Positions 1 to 60,074 of a stretch of 64,000 nt of DNA are shown here, piece by piece. The notes under the pieces are model-generated. The model was not told where the DNA came from. It ran no database searches and was given only the letters and a program-made list of their open reading frames with translations. Location of the stretch: positions 1-64,000 of the forward strand of contig CAVVMY010000013.1 of assembly GCA_963749405.1 (NCBI GenBank), read 5' to 3'. The DNA is from Candidatus Altiarchaeales archaeon (GTDB lineage: Archaea; Altiarchaeota; Altiarchaeia; IMC4; QMZM01). The number at the start of each line of letters is the position of its first letter. Position 1 is the stretch's first letter. The position numbers and the translations under genes are program-made.

Positions 1-3002
<3,002 letters not shown>

Positions 3003-3003
3003 G

Positions 3004-4823
3004 TTACACCACGTCCTGTAATTTCAGTCTTGGGGCGATGCCCATGCTCTTCATCTCGTCCAGCAGGAGCTTGAACGCGTAACTCATCTCGACCGAGTAG
3101 ATGTCGGTCTCGTTGCCGCAGGCAAGGCAGCGGGTCATGTTGCGCTTGCGGTCGAGCATGGCGACCATGCCGCAGTGGGCGCAGACATATTCGTTCACCT
3201 TGTCCGATTCATCGAGCAGGCGTTCCTTGAGTGCCATGGCGGCGCCGTGGCCGATCATGACATCCCGCTCCATCTCACCGAACCGGAGACCGCCTTCACG
3301 GGCACGGCCTTCGGTCGGCTGGCGGGTCAGGACCTGCACCGGTCCGCGGGACCGGGCGTGCATCTTGGACGAGACCATGTGGTAGAGTTTCTGGTAGTAG
3401 ATCACGCCGATGTAGACATCGGCCTTGAAGACTTTGCCGGTGATGCCGTCATACATGACCTCCCGGCCGTTGTGGGAGAAACCGAGTTTCTTTAAGGATG
3501 CACGGATATCCGCCTCGCTCTCGCCGCCGAATGCGGTGCCGTTGATGCGCCGGCCTTCGAGGGCGCCGACCTTGCCGCCGATCATCTCGAGCATGTGCCC
3601 GATGGTCATACGGCTCGGGATCGCATGGGGGTTGATGACGAGGTCGGGGGTGAGGCCGCTCTCGGTGAAGGGCATGTCTTCCTGGTGGGCGATGAGGCCG
3701 ACGACACCCTTCTGCCCGTGCCGGGACGCGAACTTGTCGCCGACTTCCGGGCACGCGGAGGTCGCGGGTCCGGACTTTCACGAGGCGGGAACTGTTCTCG
3801 CCCTCGGTGATGATGACCGTGTCGACAATGCCGTGCTCGTTGCTGCGCATCGTGACGGAGGTGTCGCGGCGCTTCTCGACCGCAATCAGTTCACCGGACG
3901 GTTCCTCGAGGAACCGCGGCGGGGAGGTCTTGCCGATCAGCACATCCTTCTCTGCGACAACGGTCTCGGGGTTGATCACGCCGTCTTCGTCAAGGTTCTT
4001 GTAGGACTCGGCACCGTGGGCACCGGCAACGTCCTCTTCGGGGACTTCGATCCGGTCGATCTGGCCGCCGGGATACCGGCGCTCTTCGCCTTCGTAGGTC
4101 CTGAAGAAGTGGGAACGGCCGAGGCCGCGCTCGATCGAGGCCTTGTTGAAGATGAGCGCATCTTCAATATTGTAGCCTTCGTACGAGAGGATGGCGACGA
4201 CGAAGTTCTGGCCTGCAGGCCGGTCGTCGGATCCGATCAGTTCCGAGGTCTGGGTGTGGGTGAGCGGTTTCTGCACGTAGTGGAGCAGGTGGCCGCGGGT
4301 GTCGGGGCGGAGCTTCATGTTCGCCGCGCCGAAACCGAGCGCCTGCTTGACCATGCCTGCGCCCATCGTGACACGCGGACTCGCATTGTGCTCGGGGAAC
4401 GGGACGTGTGCCGCACCGATACCGAGGATCAGGGAGGGGTCGATCTCGAGGTGGGTGTGGTCGGGGGTCGCGTTCTCGGGAAGTCCATGGCGATGAGGAG
4501 GTCTTCCTCCTCTTCTGCATCGATGAACTCGATCATGCCGCGCTGGACAAAGGAGGAGATATCGATCTCCTTCTTCGCGAGCTTGCTAGAGGTCCTCGTC
4601 GGTGATCAGGGGCTCGCCGTTTTTCAGGACGATGAGGGGGCGGCGCGCACGGCCGCGGTCGGTCAGGATCACGACATCGCCGTTGTATTCCTTGTGGGAG
4701 ACGTTCACTTCCGGCGAGATCGCTCCCTGCCGGCGCATGCTGCGGATATTGGCGACCAGTGCCTTCGGGTCGTCGACAAGGCCGATGAGGGCACCGTCAA
4801 CAAATACGCGTGACTTTCTTCAT
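3004..4823 (-). CDS. rpoB1: RNA polymerase subunit B' (C-terminal half of split RpoB), with several frameshifts (at start codon homopolymer, ~4366-4800, ~3700-3800)
   Basis: C-terminal ORF 3004..3675 (…[51 protein letters not shown]) and ORF 3449..4366 are RpoB' segments. Another frame at ~4600-4800 gives the B' N-terminus [40 protein letters not shown]. The ATG overlaps the B'' stop (ATGA) at 4821-4825. Confidence 0.85.
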
Positions 4824-5350
4824 CAGACCTCACCCCGGATGTGCTCGACACCAAGGTTATGCAGGATGCGCATGATCTCTTCCTCGTCATCGACACCCTT
4901 GCTGATCTCCACCATCTGGGCAAAGTTCTTGACAAGGCCGCAATTCGGCCCTTCGGGAGTCTCGCTCGGGCAGATCCGGCCCCACTGGGTCGGGTGCAGG
5001 TCACGGGCCTCGAAATGGGGCTGTGAGCGCGAGAGCGGGGAGATCACGCGGCGGAGGTGCGAGAGCACGGCCATGTGGTCGACCCGGTCGAGGAGCTGCG
5101 AGACACCGGTCCTCCCGCCCACCCAGTTGCCGGTAGCAAGCGGGTGGAGCAGGCGTTCGGTGAGCACGTCGGCACGCACTGCGGTCGCGATCGAGAGATC
5201 GCGGTGGCGCATGCTGGCGCGCTCGAGCTGGTACTTGATATCACGGGTGAGCCGGTTGAGCGAGATACGGAAGAGGTCCTCCATCAGGTCGCCCGCAAGT
5301 TTCAGCCTCTTGTTCGAGTAGTGGTCCTTGTCATCGATCCTGCGCCGGCG
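4823..5350 (-). CDS. rpoB2: RNA polymerase subunit B'' C-terminal fragment, 5'-truncated at a sequence breakpoint near 5350
   Basis: ORF 4823..5284 (…GRICPSETPEGPNCGLVKNFAQMVEISKGVDDEEEIMRILHNLGVEHIRGEV). In-frame upstream sequence RRRRIDDKDHYSNKRLKLAGDLMEDLF matches the B'' DDRDHYGNKRLKLAGDL motif and ends at an in-frame stop at ~5351. No B''-like sequence lies beyond that. Confidence 0.8.
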   Translation of the reverse strand, partial: RRRRIDDKDHYSNKRLKLAGDLMEDLFRISLNRLTRDIKYQLERASMRHRDLSIATAVRADVLTERLLHPLATGNWVGGRTGVSQLLDRVDHMAVLSHLRRVISPLSRSQPHFEARDLHPTQWGRICPSETPEGPNCGLVKNFAQMVEISKGVDDEEEIMRILHNLGVEHIRGEV

Positions 5351-5415
5351 TCATAAGCGAACTCGACTCGCAGACAGGGAATGCCCAAGCAGGCTCAACA
5401 AGCGACCTGACGGCG

Positions 5416-6474
5416 TTGAAGACGGTCTTCCAGGACAACGGAATCACTCTCTCAGACTATGCCCGCGTAGAAAAAGGCAGCGGCAAATGGTCGGTCATCG
5501 ACGGGGACAGAAATTACGACATCTACGCAGACGACAAAGGCGGACTAAACGTAATAAACATGGGCTTTGCTTCAGTCTCACTGGCAGAGGACGACTTCAA
5601 AAACGGCCTGCTACAGGTAAAGACCTTCTTCAAAGACCTGCTGATACCCATGTCACCCAATGTAGTAGAAAACAAATCAGCAGCAGACCCGGTCTGTTAC
5701 ACCATGAATATCACATTCAGGAGGCCGTCAATACTATCTGTGGAGGTGTCCCCGAGCGGGTACACGATACCTGCAGGAACACGGGTCACTGCCACCTCTA
5801 AACTCGCACTCTATGACGGAACGCCCCTGCCCAACGAGAAAATATATGTAGACTTGTCAGGGACAAATATATGGGACCTCTCGCCCCAGGGAGTGTACAA
5901 GGACTACATGTTCTCCTACGAGGAGCTAAGCAGCAGCACAGAGCAGCAGGCAAGGCTCAGAGATTATCTTATCAGTCTGGGATATCCAGACATCGCCCAG
6001 GAATTGGACGGAGCTCAATACTCTGCAGACGGCGCAGACAAGATAGAGATAACTACATCAGGTGTTGACCCGACGCTTGAAGCAGTAGACGGCGTATCCC
6101 ACCTCAAGCTCGACAATGGCCAGGACATCATAGTCGGAGTAACCGAAAACTACAACGGCAAACTACTGGTATACGAATCAGAGGAACAGAAAAGCCTCGC
6201 ATATGCGATAACGGACGCAAGCGGCATCGCCAAATACTCATTTATACCTACGGGCAGCACCTCAGTGGGCAATTCCTATCCTGGAGGAAACATATCGTCG
6301 CCTACCCAGGCCAGCGTAGGGATACACACTGTTAGCGTCAAGTCGCCTCTTTTCTCAGGGGAGTTCCTGCTCCTGGCGCTGATACTCGTATTCGGGGTGT
6401 TCTCCTACAAATACTTCGGAAGCAGGAAACTTGACTTCTATTCATGGTGGAGGGACTTCAGAGGCAGAAAATGA
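5416..6474 (+). CDS. Surface/exported protein with C-terminal transmembrane anchor and basic tail (possibly 5'-truncated by the breakpoint)
   Basis: 352-aa ORF ends GEFLLLALILVFGVFSYKYFGSRKLDFYSWWRDFRGRK, a TM plus basic tail of the archaeal C-terminal anchor type. No N-terminal signal peptide is visible and the frame stays open upstream into the rpoB'' remnant. Its stop overlaps the next gene's start (ATGA at 6471-6474). Confidence 0.5.
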   Translation: MKTVFQDNGITLSDYARVEKGSGKWSVIDGDRNYDIYADDKGGLNVINMGFASVSLAEDDFKNGLLQVKTFFKDLLIPMSPNVVENKSAADPVCYTMNITFRRPSILSVEVSPSGYTIPAGTRVTATSKLALYDGTPLPNEKIYVDLSGTNIWDLSPQGVYKDYMFSYEELSSSTEQQARLRDYLISLGYPDIAQELDGAQYSADGADKIEITTSGVDPTLEAVDGVSHLKLDNGQDIIVGVTENYNGKLLVYESEEQKSLAYAITDASGIAKYSFIPTGSTSVGNSYPGGNISSPTQASVGIHTVSVKSPLFSGEFLLLALILVFGVFSYKYFGSRKLDFYSWWRDFRGRK

Positions 6475-17621: not shown

Positions 17622-17957
17622 TCCCCTAAAACTCTCAGGCAGGCCCCCTCAAAAGAGAGCCAACACTCTTAAGGTCCCCTGCCAACTTCCTTTTCTCCGG
17701 AGAAAAATCCATCCTAGGATCCACATTCACACTCCATACAAAGCAGCCAACTATGCCATTAAATTTTATACGTTATGAGAATATATACTTCCAAACCGCG
17801 TGGTGGACGAGCCACCACCCAGTTTTTGGTATTTGCAGGCATGGCCTGCATCCCTTGGGACCTGACCCTCCCCCGGGTAGGTCTAAAGACCTACTGCCGA
17901 CGAGGAAAATCAATCTCATCACAAAAAATAGGCCCCTGTTAATCTATTAGAAGAAAA

Positions 17958-29583: not shown

Positions 29584-29797
29584 AGCCTCCCCTCTTTAAA
29601 AAAGGGATTGCTAGGATCCCAAAAGAAAAAGGATGTGGGGTCTGAAGACCCCACTGGTTCGATTTATAACCTCTTGCTTATCTTTTTTTCCTTTGTTTTC
29701 TCTCCTTTTCGGTCTGCGCCGAACAAATCCGTCTGAGTTTTTATATAATGGCGTTAAGATAAGTAATCATCTAATCCGGTTTATTCACTTAAGAGAA

Positions 29798-31550: not shown

Positions 31551-32115
31551 ATTTATTTTTATCGTAATACCCCGCTGCTTGCAGCGGGGTCGTTCCCCTT
31601 GCAAGTAAATAGGTTTTGTGTGTAAATAATTGTGTGGATTTAGGTAGGGCTTCGCATTGTGTGTATAAGATTAGGTATCATATGGTTTTGTGTGTGAAGT
31701 ATCGCAAGGGGCTGATTAGGGGGGAGTTGGAATCGTATCTCTGTGAAGTTTTGAAGGGTATTGGCGATAGGTATGAGTTTGAGTTGGATGCCGTTGGTTG
31801 CGACGGTAATCACGTGCACGCCTTTGTTGGGGCTGCTCCCAGGTATGCCCCTGCCAGGGTGATGCAGGTGATGAAAAGCGTATCTGCCCGCCTGCTCTTT
31901 GAGCGTTTTCCAGAGGTTAGGAAAACGCTTTGGGGAGCAGAGTTTTGGAGTGATGGCGGATACGTAGGAACTGTTGGAGACGGCGTAACAGAGGACATAA
32001 TCAGAAGATATGTTGAGCAGCAAGGCTCCCCTGAAGAGAAAGAAGATTACGCTCAAATGAAGCTTACCACGTTTACGTCGTAAATACCCCGCAGCTTGCT
32101 GCGGGGATATTTATT
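31551..32115 (+). mobile_element. IS200/IS605-family insertion sequence, copy 1 (tnpA only, ~565 bp, subterminal hairpins)
   Basis: Identical to 34496..35060 over 565 bp. Left hairpin CCCCGCTGCTTGCAGCGGGG, right hairpin CCCCGCAGCTTGCTGCGGGG. Encodes a Y1 HUH transposase. Confidence 0.85.
31616..32083 (+). CDS. tnpA: IS200/IS605 TnpA (Y1 HUH transposase)
   Basis: YHMVLCVKYRKGLIRGELESYLCEVL…GNHVHAFVGAAPRYAPARVMQVMKSVSARLLFERFPEVRKTLWGAEFWSDGGYVGTVG, with HxH and catalytic Y motifs. 155 aa. Confidence 0.85.
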   Translation: MCVNNCVDLGRASHCVYKIRYHMVLCVKYRKGLIRGELESYLCEVLKGIGDRYEFELDAVGCDGNHVHAFVGAAPRYAPARVMQVMKSVSARLLFERFPEVRKTLWGAEFWSDGGYVGTVGDGVTEDIIRRYVEQQGSPEEKEDYAQMKLTTFTS

Positions 32116-32698: not shown

Positions 32699-34495
32699 AA
32701 GATATCTCAGAATCAAAAATATTTTTCTTCGGTAATTTTTTTCTTTTTATTTTACACTAATCCTTCTCATTACGAGTAGTAATCCTTGTTTGTCGGATAC
32801 CAATTCCCATCCAGGCACAGAACTTTGTCGATGGCTGTGTGTTCCTTGTGGATGTACATTGTCGTCATCCATTCAAGGTCGTTTGATCCGTCGCTGTATA
32901 CGTATGATGTAAGGGTTGGATTCATGCTTGGGAAGTCGTTTACTATGTCGGTCTGGGTTTCTCCGTATGTTCCCATAGCGAATTTGCAGAAATTCTCCAT
33001 GTTCGTCGCCTCCCACCGGATATAAGGCAGACTTGTCCAGCACGCCACATGCGATATCATCGTGGTCGTAGTAGTTGTAGATGGCCTAGTAGTAGTCGTC
33101 GTAGTTGATGTGCTTGTGGTGCTGGAAGAGGATGTGGTCGTAGTGGACGTAGTCAGTGAGGTGCTTTCACGTAGAATATCCAGAATTTACCCTGCGCTTG
33201 GAGCGCAGCTTCGGCCTGCATTATATGGGAAAACAGGCGCATTTACACCGTCTGTGCAATTCGCAGTCCAACCATACATGCCTTCAGGCACGTTGTTAAG
33301 TATAAAATAGTTAATTTCTAGTTTGTTAACGCCTGTATACGTTTTATCGATTTTCCAACTGCCAGACACATTCGTCCACAAAGAACAATTCAACTTATCC
33401 GTATTATCATCCGTCACGTTAAACTTCAAAGTCCCAAACGAGTATACAAAGTGGTCGAAGTAGGATGAGTAGTGGTTGTAGTAGTTGTGCTTGTCGTCGT
33501 AGGATGAGTAGTGGTGGTAGTAGTATAGCATTCTATATAATCGACGTCCACCCCCCAAGCGGTTCCTGACGCGTCTGATGTAAATGTCAACCATACAGCG
33601 TTCTCATAAGTGTTTCTCAACGCATGGCTTGATTGGCTTCCTGACCAGCTTCCGCTGTCTCCGTTGCTTGCAGCATAACCGAACCAGTCGTTGGAGGCCA
33701 CGGAATAATTATCGTCTATCATCAAAATGGCTCCTTTTGGGCAGGTGTATGTTCCTGACACGCAGTTCATGCTGTTGCCGTAGGGATGTGGTGTTCTGAA
33801 GTATATACTATTTACTCCAGCTACGAGAGTAACGGAAGGGGAGTAAGTACATGAAGCAGGAGTCGTAGTAGTTGTGGTTGTAGTAGCTTTGGTGGTTGTT
33901 GTAGTTGGATGAGTTGTGGTTGTAGTGGCTTTGGTGGTCGTAGTGGTGGAAACACATGAGTTGTTGACTTGTACGTTAATCGTTTCCAAATTAGTCCAGC
34001 CGTCTGCCTGTGGGATGGTGAACGAACCTATCTCGCATGCACTGCTCCTCCACGAGCCGTTCAGGTCGGGACAGAAGTCTATTTGTAAGGTGTCATCTTT
34101 GTCTTCTGAGCAGAAGGCGTTTATGTCATCAATATAGAGAGTATAATTATGCCCTGCAGTGACGCTTGAAAATACGTTGCTGATATAGTTGTTAATAGTG
34201 TTCATGCAACCATACGGAGCCTGGTACAACTGAGTAGTTGATGAATTGCCTATCAAATCGCTTCTGAGAATAATATTACCTCCTGTGCACTCATTGTTCG
34301 CAGGGCCGCATGAGTTAGCAAATGCGCCTATCTGGGATCCTGATTCGAACGTCCATGCGACCAGCATAGGAGTACTGCTCCAACTCCAATCAGACCCTCC
34401 TCTTCCGTTGTTACAGTGGAAAGTCACCCCGCTTATGCTGTCGATGCTTACGCTGTCTCCCGGGCATAGGAGCAGGTTGTGGTTGGTCGGATTCC

Positions 34496-35060
34496 ATTTA
34501 TTTTTATCGTAATACCCCGCTGCTTGCAGCGGGGTCGTTCCCCTTGCAAGTAAATAGGTTTTGTGTGTAAATAATTGTGTGGATTTAGGTAGGGCTTCGC
34601 ATTGTGTGTATAAGATTAGGTATCATATGGTTTTGTGTGTGAAGTATCGCAAGGGGCTGATTAGGGGGGAGTTGGAATCGTATCTCTGTGAAGTTTTGAA
34701 GGGTATTGGCGATAGGTATGAGTTTGAGTTGGATGCCGTTGGTTGCGACGGTAATCACGTGCACGCCTTTGTTGGGGCTGCTCCCAGGTATGCCCCTGCC
34801 AGGGTGATGCAGGTGATGAAAAGCGTATCTGCCCGCCTGCTCTTTGAGCGTTTTCCAGAGGTTAGGAAAACGCTTTGGGGAGCAGAGTTTTGGAGTGATG
34901 GCGGATACGTAGGAACTGTTGGAGACGGCGTAACAGAGGACATAATCAGAAGATATGTTGAGCAGCAAGGCTCCCCTGAAGAGAAAGAAGATTACGCTCA
35001 AATGAAGCTTACCACGTTTACGTCGTAAATACCCCGCAGCTTGCTGCGGGGATATTTATT
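34496..35060 (+). mobile_element. IS200/IS605-family insertion sequence, copy 2 (identical to copy 1)
   Basis: 100% identical 565 bp. Inserted inside the surface-protein gene. Same orientation as copy 1, 2380 bp downstream. Confidence 0.85.
34561..35028 (+). CDS. tnpA: IS200/IS605 TnpA (Y1 HUH transposase), second copy
   Basis: Protein identical to 31616..32083. Confidence 0.85.
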   Translation: MCVNNCVDLGRASHCVYKIRYHMVLCVKYRKGLIRGELESYLCEVLKGIGDRYEFELDAVGCDGNHVHAFVGAAPRYAPARVMQVMKSVSARLLFERFPEVRKTLWGAEFWSDGGYVGTVGDGVTEDIIRRYVEQQGSPEEKEDYAQMKLTTFTS

Positions 35061-35460: not shown

Positions 35461-35530
35461 TAAATAAAATACATTACATTAATCAAACCATACGGCAGAA
35501 TTGATATCTGCAAAAAAGATAAATAAGAAA

Positions 35531-36427
35531 ATGGATCTGAAAATCAACAACGTAGCGGTGGAAGACACATACTGCGAAGCATTCGACGGACTGTATGCGC
35601 GGCTCCTCATCACTGCAAGGGACGATAAACGGCTCAGGAAGGCAGCTGAAGGATCCACTGCACTGCCCTGCACGGTCTTCGGGGAATCCGAAGGCGGAGT
35701 AGAGAGATATCTCTCCAAAAAGGAGACACCGGACGGACGAGCTGGGGCGATCATACAAATCTGGGTCGGCGCAGGGAGCAGCGGACCTGCAAAACTCGAA
35801 TACGAACTGGGAAAGAGGATAAGGCAGGGCATACTGGTCGTACCAACGACGAGGATATTTGACTGCTCAGACAGCCCGGACAAAATGGACATGATGGCAA
35901 AGGTGGGCCACTGCGGAGACGGATACGAGCATGTCGAGACGCGGTATGGACGGGAAATGATAAACATCCCCCTGATGATGGGAGAATTCCTGATAGAAAG
36001 ACGGATCGGCTACTCTAAAGGCGTCATGGGCGGAAACATCTGGATAATGTGCGAAACCGAGGACGCCGGCCTGAAAGCAGGGGATGCGGCAGTCGAAGCC
36101 GTTAACAGGACAGAAGGAACTATCGCATCATTCGACGTCTGCTCTGCGGGATCGAAAGTCGAGACACGGTATCCGGAGATCGGACCCACCACCAATCACC
36201 CATACTGCCCGACGCTTAAGGGGAAGATACCGGACTACAGGGTACCGGAAGGGGTTACGTCTATACCTGAGATCGTGATAAACGGGACGACGCTGGATGC
36301 TGTAAAAGAGGCGATGAAAGCCGGACTGTCGGCGGCTGCGAACGTCAAAGGAGTTAAAAAATTGTCGGCTGGGAATTACTGGGGGAAACTGGGGAGACAC
36401 CACATTTACCTGAAGGACCTTATTTAA
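35531..36427 (+). CDS. ftr: Formylmethanofuran--tetrahydromethanopterin N-formyltransferase
   Basis: [29 protein letters not shown]… matches the Ftr N-terminus (MEINGVEIEDTFAEAFD…). ~298 aa. The ORF-track start at 35501 is probably an upstream extension. Confidence 0.8.
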
Positions 36428-36449: not shown

Positions 36450-36902
36450 ATGAAAACCAGCAACATCCACTCGGCCGCAACGATAATCCTCGGCCTGCTG
36501 TTTTTGATAAACATACCCTTTGCTTTCCAAGTAAAATACTTATGCGACGGCGTTGAAGTCCCTGATTGCGCATCATGCCATGGAACAGGCTGCGGCCAAG
36601 ACTATAGGTATTCATTCACCTCAATCCTGTTATTTGACTGCCCTTTCCTGTTGTTCCTGACCGGACTGATCACGCTAGTCTATTACCAAGTAAAAAAGAA
36701 AGACCCTGATGCAAGGTGGCTAAGCGCACTCAACCTGGTACCGCTCATAATACTTACTGGAAGCGCAGGCTTTTTCAGTGTATGCGTTCTTGGATTGTGC
36801 TCCAATATACTTAACTTAGGCGTGAACGCTCTAATATTAGGACTGAACATCATATACGCCGTATGGTTATTACGTCGGACAAGAACTGCCACAAAGATTT
36901 AA
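36450..36902 (+). CDS. Hypothetical membrane protein with CxxC motifs (150 aa)
   Basis: 4 predicted TM. DCASCHGTGCGQ Cys cluster in the first loop. Confidence 0.4.
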   Translation: MKTSNIHSAATIILGLLFLINIPFAFQVKYLCDGVEVPDCASCHGTGCGQDYRYSFTSILLFDCPFLLFLTGLITLVYYQVKKKDPDARWLSALNLVPLIILTGSAGFFSVCVLGLCSNILNLGVNALILGLNIIYAVWLLRRTRTATKI

Positions 36903-36936: not shown

Positions 36937-37011
36937 GGGCCCGTGGCTCAGCTTGGTTAGAGCACCTGACTGATAATCAGGGGGTCTGGAGTTCAAATCT
37001 CCACGGGCCCA
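36937..37011 (+). tRNA. tRNA-Ile (anticodon GAT)
   Basis: GGGCCCGTGGCTCAGCTTGGTTAGAGCACCTGACTGATAATCAGGGGGTCTGGAGTTCAAATCTCCACGGGCCCA. Anticodon loop CTGATAA. Confidence 0.85.
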
Positions 37012-37102
37012 AAAGCTTTTTCTTTCTTAAGAAGAAATAAAAAGCTTTTCAAGCAAAAAGAAAGAACGTGCCATCTTCGATGGCACTGACGGTTTCAAAC
37101 GA

Positions 37103-37166
37103 CAGGGGGTCTGGATGCCCAACAGGGCATGCAGGCGAAGCCTGCATTCAAATCTCTATGGGCCCA
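37103..37166 (+). other. Diverged partial duplicate of the tRNA-Ile 3' half (variable/T-arm/acceptor 3' strand) carrying a ~31-nt hairpin-forming insertion; not a complete tRNA
   Basis: CAGGGGGTCTGGA[TGCCCAACAGGGCATGCAGGCGAAGCCTGCA]TTCAAATCTCTATGGGCCCA versus the tRNA's CAGGGGGTCTGGAGTTCAAATCTCCACGGGCCCA. No matching 5' half upstream. Both copies are followed by the 17-bp palindromic direct repeat tctttcttaagaagaaa (37021-37037 and 37181-37197). Confidence 0.6.
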
Positions 37167-37259
37167 CTTGTACCCTCTTCTCTTTCTTAAGAAGAAAGAA
37201 TGTGCTATCTAGTGCCGAGGAATAGATAAAACTGCGCCGTCTGCCCTTAATCAGCCGCT

Positions 37260-37664
37260 TCAATGGCCTATCCTGTTTTTCCCGTTTTTTTGGGTTTGGA
37301 TGTGTTCTGGTTTTTTTATTCCTGTCTTCTCTCTTAGTTTTTTCAGGGTTCCGGAAACAGTCAGCGTATGGTAAGCTGCCGTGTGCTTGTTTTCTTCCTT
37401 CTTTATTTCCGTAATCAGGGTCAATGCCGCCTTTATGTCGTCTACCGACCTGTGGTTTACTTTTATTATGCCTCTCTGCATGTCCTGGTCCCAGTCCATG
37501 ATCCACATGCTTGTCTGGCTTGTTCCTTTTTCGCCCAGGTATCTTAGGGAGGCGTTCCAGGCGGCTTTCACTACTTCGTCGCGGGAGAATTTCTGGTCTG
37601 ATATTATCTCAAATGCCAGGTAGCGGTTCTTTTCTCTTAGCGTTGGGGGGAGTAGTTTAGGCAT
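37260..37664 (-). CDS. rnp2: RNase P protein component 2 (Pop5/Rpp14 homolog)
   Basis: MPKLLPPTLREKNRYLAFEIISDQKFSRDEVVKAAWNASLRYLGEKGTS matches the archaeal Pop5 N-terminus (LPPTLR.K.RYIAFE…). Confidence 0.8.
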   Translation of the reverse strand: MPKLLPPTLREKNRYLAFEIISDQKFSRDEVVKAAWNASLRYLGEKGTSQTSMWIMDWDQDMQRGIIKVNHRSVDDIKAALTLITEIKKEENKHTAAYHTLTVSGTLKKLREKTGIKKPEHIQTQKNGKNRIGH

Positions 37665-58465: not shown

Positions 58466-59041
58466 ATGAAAAAACTGAAAGCCTGGATGCTCAACAGGAA
58501 AGCATCTACTCCGAAAAGCAAGCCCGACGAGATAATGAACAGCCTGGCATTGCAGCCGGGACAGAATATCGCAGACATCGGAACAGGCGGAGGCTATTTT
58601 TCACTCCGATTTGCCGAAGCAGTAGAAAACCAGGGAATCGTATACGCAGTGGACACCGACAAGGCTTTTCTCGATATGCTGACAGATAATGCAAGAAAAA
58701 AAGGCGCAAACAATATAAAAACAGTTCTAGCAGCCTCAATAAAGTCGTCCATACCACAGCAAAGCCTGGACTACGTTTTCCTGAGAAACGCATACCACCA
58801 CCTCCAAAACAGGATACAATACTTCAAAGAACTCTCAACCCTCCTCAAACCCACAGGAAAAATCGCAATCATAGAATACACGAAAAACGGCAAAAGAAGG
58901 CCCAAGGGCCACTACGTTCCAAAAGAAAAAATAATAGAAGAGATGAACGAAGCCGGATACAAAGAAGAAAAAAGCTACGACTACCTGCCAGAGCAATCCT
59001 TTACAATCTACGCCAAAAAGAAATCAGATACTCCGGCTTGA
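58466..59041 (+). CDS. Class I SAM-dependent methyltransferase
   Basis: IADIGTGGGYFSLRFAEAV…VYAVDTD motif I / post-I. Confidence 0.7.
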   Translation: MKKLKAWMLNRKASTPKSKPDEIMNSLALQPGQNIADIGTGGGYFSLRFAEAVENQGIVYAVDTDKAFLDMLTDNARKKGANNIKTVLAASIKSSIPQQSLDYVFLRNAYHHLQNRIQYFKELSTLLKPTGKIAIIEYTKNGKRRPKGHYVPKEKIIEEMNEAGYKEEKSYDYLPEQSFTIYAKKKSDTPA

Positions 59042-59174
59042 AAGCCGGAGTATGTGCCCAAAGGGCATGCCAGTAGGCACTTAAAAATCGGCAACGATAC
59101 GTCATTCTGTCCCCCAAGGGGACATGCCGCGCACGGCATCTGCGGGCTAAAGCCCGCAGTATCTGCCGATTTTT
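59028..59174 (+). ncRNA. Structured intergenic element, copy B (ATACTCCGGC-TTGAAA-GCCGGAGTAT; outer stem AAAATCGGCAA…TATCTGCCGATTTT enclosing hairpins GTCCCCCAAGGGGAC, ATGCCGCGCACGGCAT, CTGCGGGCTAAAGCCCGCAG)
   Basis: Read directly. First hairpin overlaps the last codons of the SAM-MTase gene. Followed by a T-run. Confidence 0.45.
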
Positions 59175-59199
59175 AATAAAAAAACTTTAAATCTGCAAC

Positions 59200-59854: not shown

Positions 59855-60074
59855 AACTCCCTTAAAGGGACGTTGACGGAATAAAGAAAAAGAAGCCGGG
59901 GTCTGCGACCCCGCTGGATGAATTACTTTCAATCGCTTCAAAATGTGGGGTCGAAGATCCCAGATGGGAGGGGTCAGGTGCGCCTATGGCGCATGCAGGC
60001 CGTGGGCGATAGCCCTCCTGCGGTTTGACTGCTGATGGTTTTATATTCTGGTTCAGAATATATAATGCCCGACC

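Follow-up and report, generated by a model that had tools for sequence, protein, structure and literature searches.

Several described systems place a tRNA-derived piece or a structured repeat behind an intact tRNA gene. In tRNA-integrated elements of the pNOB8/SSV type, the attachment sites attL and attR leave a repeat of the 3′ part, from the loop to the 3′ end, downstream of the intact tRNA, and at the tRNA-Thr locus of Caldiarchaeum a mobile element integrated at the tRNA gene left tRNA fragments behind (PMC3293823). Tandem tRNA duplicates and pseudogenes show a collinear, decayed second copy with the same trailer motifs and signs of concerted evolution. Archaeal tRNA genes may also be interrupted by one or more bulge–helix–bulge (BHB) introns or be split, and in dicistronic tRNA–small RNA (sRNA) or mascRNA-type transcripts a structured element lies directly behind the tRNA and closes with a T-arm/acceptor-like end and then a T-run. 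MITEs (transposable elements of the miniature inverted-repeat kind) and repetitive extragenic palindromic (REP)-like repeats are short, gene-less, multi-copy, intergenic and palindromic, with presence/absence differences. MITE-rich genomes of Altiarchaeum, tRNA pseudogenes and hairpin repeats between genes are all known, as are tRNA fragments beside tRNA genes. Here we analyse a locus that has some features in common with each of these systems. It lies in a 64,000-nucleotide (nt) stretch of a Candidatus Altiarchaeales archaeon (contig CAVVMY010000013.1, positions 1 to 64,000; hereafter the window), where an intact tRNA-Ile(GAT) is followed by an eroded copy of its own 3′ part, here called unit 2, with a double hairpin set into it. 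In the reading we favour, unit 2 closes a lineage-conserved 'tRNA-trailer array'. The combination of a modular trailer, cognate end copies at several isotypes and intron homology has no description in Rfam or in the literature searched.

The live tRNA-Ile(GAT) is intact, 75 nt long and without an intron (36937–37011, + strand; ARAGORN, and Rfam RF00005 at 70.5 bits, E = 1.5e-15). Unit 2 follows 91 nt later. Its 5′ piece, CAGGGGGTCTGGA (37103–37115, +), equals tRNA-Ile positions 40–52 at 13 of 13 bases and is homologous to the block GGGAGGGTCAGGA of the repeat family described below. Its 3′ piece, TTCAAATCTCTATGGGCCCA (37147–37166, +), corresponds at 18 of 20 bases to the T-loop, the 3′ strands of the T-stem and acceptor stem and the discriminator, so that TTCAAATCTCCACGGGCCCA of the tRNA returns with two transitions. 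Between the pieces, 31 nt replace G53. As a null for repeated patterns we used dinucleotide shuffles, which gave means of 0.00–0.08 matches per pattern in 64 kb: CAGGGGGTCTGGA is found in the window only at 36978 and 37103 (two or more matches in 0/100 shuffles), and TTCAAATCTCYAYGGGCCCA only at 36992 and 37147 (shuffle mean 0.00). The sequence is identical in an independent Logan assembly (ERR11596056, locus L003), and the locus is therefore not an assembly artefact.

Trailer blocks repeat in the same order after the tRNA and after unit 2. Behind the tRNA lies an A/T-rich inverted repeat, AAAAGCTTTTTCTTTCTT/AAGAAATAAAAAGCTTTT (37011–37049), with 18-nt arms that are 94% complementary; it holds a T5 run and the first copy (37021–37037) of a 17-nt palindrome, and would be terminator-like on both strands. 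It is followed by an A-rich tract (37055–37067) and, as judged by folding, an 8-bp GC hairpin, H4, GTGCCATC-TTC-GATGGCAC (37068–37086; tract and hairpin together 37055–37086). The second trailer (37167–37215) consists of CTTGTACCCTCTTC, palindrome copy 2 (37181–37197), an A-rich tract and a weak hairpin, GTGCT-ATCT-AGTGC (37202–37215). The palindrome, TCTTTCTTAAGAAGAAA, occurs in the window only at 37021 and 37181 (at least two matches in 0/100 shuffles), and the repeat unit runs on past it, AAAAAGAAAGAACGTGCCATCT at 37055 matching AAGAAGAAAGAATGTGCTATCT at 37189 at 19 of 22 positions. A sequence-only reading of this DNA had placed the tRNA, both pieces of unit 2, the hairpins of the insert and the palindrome copies, and we confirmed each of these elements; it had missed the extension of the repeat past the palindrome, the hairpin at 37068–37086 and the inverted repeat around the first palindrome copy.

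Ahead of unit 2, direct reading of 37082–37102 (+) shows GGCACTGAC (37082–37090), which resembles tRNA-Ile positions 23–32 (AGCACCTGAC), followed by 12 unrelated bases. This likeness taken alone is not significant (166/1000 shuffles), and that of the homologous GTGAGACCCCACTGACGGATAAT in a relative, locus L004, to GTTAGAGCACCTGACTGATAAT of its tRNA is (5/1000 shuffles): L004 keeps ...CACTGACGGATAAT, collinear with the tRNA D-stem and anticodon loop. GGCACTGAC may be what is left of the 5′ part of a second tRNA-Ile copy. Derivation of hairpin H4 from the D-arm reached significance in only 1 of 9 copies, and we kept it as a hint.

Unit 2 cannot make a tRNA. ARAGORN, with and without intron mode, called no tRNA at unit 2; Infernal, run over 401 nt, gave no tRNA match there even at E ≤ 10; and a custom BHB scan found no motif that joins tRNA positions 32–37 with unit 2 or flanks the 31-nt insert. 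As positive controls, the scan recovered the introns of locus L018 (canonical), of L030 and, with a relaxed BHB, of L049. On these three negative results we rejected a functional or intron-containing tRNA, in agreement with the sequence-only reading, which had taken unit 2 for a partial copy, without function, of the 3′ part of tRNA-Ile and not for a BHB-intron tRNA. As for a split tRNA, the part of the genome covered, the 64-kb window, holds no second 5′ half, and the intact tRNA-Ile(GAT) would make a split gene unnecessary. Only tRNAs reached the gathering score of Rfam 15 in the window and nothing credible fell over the hairpin modules at E ≤ 5–10, so that we also rejected a known RNA family for these modules.

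Orthologous loci (designated by L numbers) were fetched from genome and metagenome collections with the RNase P protein gene pop5 (Pop5/Rpp14; 37260–37664, −; from the list of open reading frames (ORFs), with PF01900 on all homologues), which is convergent to tRNA-Ile, as the anchor. Homologues of Pop5 and ThiL carry the source labels Candidatus Altiarchaeota or Altiarchaeia. Throughout the close clade (Pop5 67–90% identity), tRNA-Ile is followed by homologous hairpin blocks at every locus, and five related Altiarchaeia genomes (L001, L004, L011, L012 and L013) share the layout. In L011, L012 and L013, tRNA-Ile and the hairpin modules are followed by a copy of the tRNA 3′ end, CTCAGCGGGCCC(A); across the three the copies span 12–17 nt, and in L011 and L012 17 nt of the array end are identical to the locus's own tRNA 3′ end. 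Their unit 2 is longer and reads (C)AGGGAGGGTCAGGA, hairpins H2 and H3, a linker rich in A, H5 (a GTG...CAC hairpin) and GCGGTTYGG, after which come a T-arm-like piece and CTCAGCGGGCCC(A); unit 2 of the window aligns to it minus about 55 nt (linker, H5 and GCGGTTYGG). L011 has two tandem units, the second decayed, and in L001 and L004 the array ends are decayed. The array is inherited within the clade. That the arrangement was a scar peculiar to this genome, as the sequence-only reading proposed, does not hold, since it recurs in L011, L012 and L013 and, decayed, in L001 and L004; universal conservation in relatives is what that reading itself had named as evidence against a scar, and the pattern largely fits it.

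Two observations bear on the age of the copies. The L013 copy keeps CTCAG, whereas the T-stem of the L013 tRNA has moved to ATGAG/CTCGT by a compensatory pair; the copy predates this change in its own tRNA and is therefore old. Unit 2 of the window, by comparison, shares window-specific T-stem bases with the live tRNA (TCTGGA...CTCTA vs TCTGGAG...CTCCA in the tRNA; CTGAG/CTCAG in relatives), which indicates gene conversion or recent re-duplication in the window. The CTTGTACCCTCTTC of its second trailer matches the L004 tRNA flank TTGTACCCTC, and CTTGTACCCTC, which follows unit 2, corresponds to the sequence immediately behind the tRNA of L004.

The 31 nt inside unit 2 (37116–37146) form a TG...CA double hairpin made of two perfect hairpins, H2 (TGCCC-AACA-GGGCA) and H3 (TGCAGGC-GAA-GCCTGCA), orthologous to doublets in L001, L011, L012 and L013. 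Far from a mere insertion, as they had been taken for, they are the conserved core of a clade-specific, multi-copy hairpin family. A strict scan for adjacent perfect TG...CA hairpins gave 20 strand-hits, that is 7 distinct doublets after palindromic strand duplicates and redundant loci were dropped, against a shuffle mean of about 0.7, and all 7 fall inside this clade. We used the strict scan in place of a permissive one, which chance matches swamped. A module profile (nhmmer) found two further copies in the window, making three in 64 kb, and had no match in distant Altiarchaeota loci or viral contigs. One is a stand-alone full module between thiL and the next gene (17781–17908, −; E = 2e-21), composed of H4, GGGAGGGTCAGG, H2, H3, an A-rich linker, H5 and GCGGTTTGG; it is missing from the orthologous thiL spacer (L114) of the metagenome-assembled genome nzgw1, from which L001 comes as well. 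The other is a partial module behind tRNA-Val (59938–60045, +; E = 2e-10). Copies lack different parts: that in unit 2 has no linker, H5 or 3′ block, half of H3 is missing from the one behind tRNA-Val, and L001 is without the 5′ block. Hairpin cassettes are thus gained and lost between close relatives. A separate hairpin cluster between convergent genes (59028–59175) has a 13-bp outer stem, TTAAAAATCGGCA/TGCCGATTTTTAA, around three GC hairpins and holds two TG...CA doublets (59055–59079 and 59108–59138).

The palindrome and H4 likewise belong to the trailers of the clade. Related T/A palindromes follow tRNAs in L009, L011, L018, L024 and L030 and also open the L049 intron, and the 17-bp palindrome, read earlier as part of the scar, is a generic clade-wide tRNA-trailer motif. 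GTG...CAC hairpins with different stems occupy the place of H4 in L004, L009, L011, L012, L013, L021, L024 and L030 and after tRNA-Cys and tRNA-Val of the window, so that all three window tRNAs (3/3) share one trailer build, in which a short T/A inverted repeat is joined by an A-rich tract and a GTG...CAC hairpin. On the minus strand, which is the pop5 strand, H4 reads as the hairpin GTGCCATCGAAGATGGCAC followed by GTTCTTTCTT, a terminator-like match to a bacterial-type consensus that may not apply to an archaeal polymerase. By eye, the same geometry of hairpin and T-tract is present in the trailers of relatives and of window tRNA-Cys and tRNA-Val.

We compared stems across 43 hairpins, which were delimited by hand and eye, so that the table is biased towards perfect stems. 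Watson–Crick pairs made up 267 of 277, with 4 G-T and 2 A-C, and between copies 520 stem changes were two-sided vs 27 one-sided, while the position and often the TG...CA ends were kept. Distinct stems numbered 8 for H3, 13 for H4 and 7 for H5 at constant hairpin positions. This shows that selection, or the generating mechanism, acts for hairpin shape. REP families, by contrast, conserve their stem sequences, and the turnover here looks more like that of terminators or palindromes than like classical RNA covariation; whole-stem replacement without wobble intermediates is more in keeping with palindromes or terminators at the DNA level than with an RNA that evolves slowly.

These data also bear on the proposal that the trailer encodes a structured sRNA of about 100–130 nt, transcribed with the tRNA or just after it, in which the single-stranded blocks would be functional and the tRNA-like 3′ end would recruit tRNA 3′-processing or CCA-adding enzymes, as in dicistronic tRNA–sRNA transcripts and mascRNA-type ends. 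Hairpin positions that stay constant while their stems vary would suit such an RNA, as would the conservation of GGGAGGGTCAGG and GCGGTTYGG among paralogues and in the distant L030, and the fold of 37060–37200, which is far stabler than that of shuffles (z = −5.07). No T-run separates tRNA and module in L001 and L004, which makes read-through plausible there, and the L013 array end, CTCAGCGGGCCC, is identical to that of L012 at 12 of 12 bases vs only about 64% in the preceding ~22 nt. The near absence of G-U pairs (4 G-T among 277) and the scarcity of one-sided changes argue against it, and the mismatches, 4 G-T vs 2 A-C, carry no strand signal, so that strand assignment from them was uninformative. 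Copies are shortened in different ways in the window, at tRNA-Val and in L001, the 17.8-kb copy is dispensable in a relative, and the tRNA-like end decays in L001, L004 and the second L011 unit. RNAalifold on a MAFFT alignment of the modules gave no useful consensus structure, stems of unequal length being misaligned. Unlike the described transcripts, the modules showed no C/D or H/ACA boxes or Rfam match, and the acceptor partner strand is not conserved. We regard a trailer RNA as improbable.

Cognate end copies are found behind other tRNAs too. The tRNA-Val trailer of the window (59855–60074, +) comprises a hairpin, an A-rich tract, two H4-type hairpins, the partial module and a decayed T-arm-like copy, CTGGTTCAGAAT...GCCCGACC (60048–60074). 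In L115 the tRNA-Val trailer carries a double hairpin, H4 and a solo hairpin of the type found at IS200 ends, and in L116 a double hairpin, H4 and GCGGTTTGGG, after which the tRNA-Val T-arm copy, CCAGGTTCATTGAATCC + T9, closes the trailer. These three trailers thus hold different cassettes between conserved ends, and in the window and L115 the decayed T-arm copy overlaps the promoter region of the next gene. The window's tRNA-Cys trailer (29585–29700, +) has the same build, with CCTCTTTAAAAAAGGG, an A-rich tract, H4 GTGGGGTC-TGAA-GACCCCAC (29635–29654), TGGTTCGATTT and a T-rich run. In L030 (Pop5 51% identity), the tRNA-Pro(CGG) trailer runs through a T/A palindrome, an A-rich tract with a hairpin, CGGGGGAATCAGGA, a hairpin, TGCGGTTCAGG and TTCAGAAATCTCGGCGGTCCCA, the last 17 nt of which are identical to the locus's own tRNA-Pro. 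A cognate T-arm/3′-end copy after a GCGGTTYGG block therefore stands behind at least three isotypes (Ile, Pro and Val), perhaps also Cys.

One rival explanation is by miniature, gene-less mobile or integrative elements that recombine in tRNA T-loops and whose recombinase, encoded elsewhere, would move them in trans. The downstream 3′-end copy would then be an attR-type site, and the hairpin-rich sequence with its GCGGTTYGG and GGGTCAGG blocks the arms of the element. The stretch from the T-loop to the 3′ end is the classical extent of tRNA att cores, and it is what is directly repeated here, over 17 identical nt in L011, L012 and L030 and 18 of 20 in the window. At Ile, Pro and Val it is the cognate tRNA that is copied; the number of units differs between related genomes, as it does for attL/attR (a decayed version in L001 and L004, a single unit in L012, L013 and the window, and two units in L011); and module copies are present or absent between relatives. 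The Caldiarchaeum case is a precedent for tRNA fragments left by integration (PMC3293823), and Ca. Altiarchaeum hamiconexum reportedly has the highest MITE density of any archaeon (PMC11602168), which would also favour such elements.

Unlike at known att sites, no integrase or other cargo lies within or beside any array, the flanks in the window being ftr, a membrane ORF, pop5 and a PAS kinase gene. The interval is only 91–320 nt long and consists of host trailer blocks; that is, the supposed element is made of the same blocks as ordinary trailers outside the repeats and at tRNAs without clear repeats. The layout is kept in relatives without polymorphism at exact boundaries, a hairpin repeat interrupts the copy, and none of the relatives compared has an empty tRNA-Ile site, the same array being present. 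In contrast to MITEs, we saw no terminal inverted repeats or short target duplications on inspection of the copy ends at 17.8, 37.1 and 59.9 kb and in L012 and L030, where copy boundaries are not sharp, and the modules are strongly tied to tRNA trailers and cognate end copies. A DNA-pattern search for attP in 2.9 million viral contigs returned no match beyond chance: there was no exact match, and 24 gapped-pattern matches lay within the estimated chance range, 0 of them fitting the module profile, and we rejected a viral attP. The L013 repeat is older than the compensatory change in its own tRNA, and, to fit several tRNAs, one family would have to possess a cognate attP core for each. A casposon-like origin, with long target duplications at tRNA-Pro, was dropped because inspection of L030 and L012 showed no terminal inverted repeats. 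The duplication or integration origin of the sequence-only reading stays plausible as such; its genome-specific scar is not supported, and we found no integrase, no cargo gene and, in the viral contigs searched, no free element bearing attP. An att scar captures the direct repeat and fails on cargo, empty sites, a free element and an interval of host trailer blocks. We consider trans-mobilised mini-elements unlikely, although they rank second among the readings weighed here.

Distant relatives raise another explanation. Their Pop5-linked tRNA-Ile(GAT) genes carry an intron at 37/38, of 92–94 nt with a canonical BHB in L017–L020 (in L018, the tRNA spans 3379–3549, −) and of 84 nt with a relaxed BHB in L049 (2030–2190, +), whose Pop5 is 47% identical to that of the window. 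The L049 intron aligned to the L009 trailer with a score of 46, where the null reached at most 24, and the alignment contains a 19/19 run; the intron is also significantly similar to the L011 and L001 trailers. Unit 2 could accordingly be the orphaned 3′ exon of a once intron-containing tRNA-Ile, with the preceding trailer as the former intron. Run in reverse, the same scheme makes it an intermediate of intron gain, in which the 3′ part was duplicated and loss of the proximal copy would turn the trailer into an intron. Like intron-bearing archaeal tRNAs, unit 2 is a tRNA segment interrupted in the T-arm; its homology begins at tRNA position 40, beside the exon boundary, and UCAA-ACG-ACAGG before it is spaced like a BHB 3′ half (compare UCAU-AAA-UCGAG in L018).

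This BHB-like remnant amounts to 3 nt, however, and is missing in L011, L012 and L013. The L018 intron is unrelated to any trailer, and the T-arm-only copies at tRNA-Pro and tRNA-Val start away from the exon boundary. Unit 2 differs from BHB-intron, multi-intron and split tRNAs in having no BHB, no G53 and no 5′ half and in adjoining a complete, intron-less tRNA-Ile. The similarity of intron and trailer allows an exon/intron history of the array without proving it, and its evolutionary direction is not polarisable with these data. An orphaned exon is the least probable of the four readings, and very doubtful. Without intron mode, ARAGORN mis-calls the 3′ part of tRNA-Ile genes of the L017–L020 type as tRNA-Ser. 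The tRNA-Pro(CGG) of L030 (3366–3487, +) has a 49-nt intron that holds C/D-box-like motifs (GUUGAUGAGG, GUGAUAC) and may be an intron-encoded guide RNA.

Tentatively, and with somewhat less than even confidence, we favour reading unit 2 as an inherited, decayed second copy of tRNA-Ile within turnover-prone hairpin cassettes, shortened and re-homogenised with the live tRNA in the window genome; mini-elements, the trailer RNA and the orphaned exon follow in that order. The array runs from the live tRNA through a T/A-rich inverted repeat, an A-rich tract with a GC hairpin, the conserved block GGGAGGGTCAGG(A) and the TG...CA double hairpin to, in relatives, an A-rich linker, a further GTG...CAC hairpin and GCGGTTYGG, and ends with the cognate copy from T-loop to 3′ end and a T-rich trailer. 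It would have arisen by tandem duplication of tRNA-Ile with its trailer. The window lineage would then have lost about 55 nt (linker, hairpin and GCGGTTYGG), and gene conversion or unequal crossing-over would have re-homogenised the two tRNA-like flanks and the trailer with the live tRNA, which would account for the T-stem bases, specific to the window, that unit 2 has in common with it. The hairpins and T-tracts are probably the working parts, serving as termination or 3′-end structures between the convergent tRNA-Ile and pop5 transcripts, and the tRNA-like piece itself is probably a passenger.

A relic duplication explains the collinearity, age, decay and local homogenisation together. Several observations weigh against it. 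Cognate T-arm/3′-end copies stand behind three or four tRNAs (Ile, Pro of L030, Val and perhaps Cys), each after GCGGTTYGG, and the same junction behind several tRNAs makes independent random tandem duplications an unlikely source. Ordinary tandem duplicates and pseudogenes, moreover, differ from these loci, where only the 3′ 20–34 nt are recognisable and the same non-tRNA block precedes the copies behind several tRNAs. The single-stranded blocks GGGAGGGTCAGG and GCGGTTYGG are kept among paralogues and as far as the relative whose Pop5 is 51% identical, with no stem the same, and such blocks look like a functional RNA or a protein-binding site. Similarity between the 5′ part of the module and the tRNA 5′ half is significant in only 1 of 9 copies, and the terminator function proposed here derives solely from the bacterial-type consensus scan.

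Upstream of tRNA-Ile lie the gene for formylmethanofuran:tetrahydromethanopterin (H4MPT) formyltransferase (ftr; 35501–36427) and, between the two, a 150-aa membrane ORF (36450–36902) for which Pfam gave no match; in L001 the tRNA directly follows ftr. Beyond pop5 the next gene encodes a PAS histidine kinase. Two IS200-type Y1 transposase copies lie nearby (31600–32110 and 34550–35055; Pfam Y1_Tnp E = 2.5e-34 for 34561–35025), with near-identical end hairpins, ATACCCCGC(A/T)GCTTGC(A/T)GCGGGG. We rejected a link between the module and these copies because the hairpins at their ends (CCCCGC-GCTTGC-GCGGGG) bear no relation to those of the module; it is a solo hairpin of this IS200 kind that is present in the L115 tRNA-Val trailer. 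Threonine-run ORFs (TTTTTK/HPTTTT), likely surface proteins, occur at 33187–34427 (−) in the window and at about 3400–5000 in L012, where one sits between the tRNA-Ile array and pop5. Positions 1–5500 of the window have a GC content of 59–63%, against ~47% across the remainder; a segment of foreign origin or a chimeric join may account for this.

How archaeal tRNA genes come to be disrupted by introns, fragmentation and splitting is an open question with few documented intermediates. For a single tRNA within a single lineage, the loci compared here form a graded series, from an intron-less gene with a decayed copy, through one or two module units with cognate ends, to introns of 84–94 nt, one of them homologous to a trailer. 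If the modules are only relics and terminator hairpins, annotation should not call such fragments tRNAs or att sites, and the repeated 3′ ends probably break assemblies at such loci. The Logan contigs L004, L005 and L010 all end within the tRNA-Ile T-arm region (GGTCCTGAGTTC... or GGTCCGGAGTTC...), as expected where the tRNA 3′ end would be a repeated k-mer in those genomes. A bolder possibility, which we hold to be unlikely, is an undescribed system of the Altiarchaeia in which a small, hairpin-rich module, its GGGTCAGG and GCGGTTYGG blocks invariant, lies behind tRNAs and is always bounded by a cognate copy from T-loop to 3′ end. It would be either a gene-less, T-loop-targeting element that duplicates the 3′ end or a trailer RNA that needs a tRNA-like end and, since the L049 tRNA-Ile intron is trailer-like sequence, the making or loss of long tRNA introns might draw on such arrays as its raw material. 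Should the modules be mobile or functional, this uncultivated and poorly known phylum would have in them a tRNA-associated element that is new.

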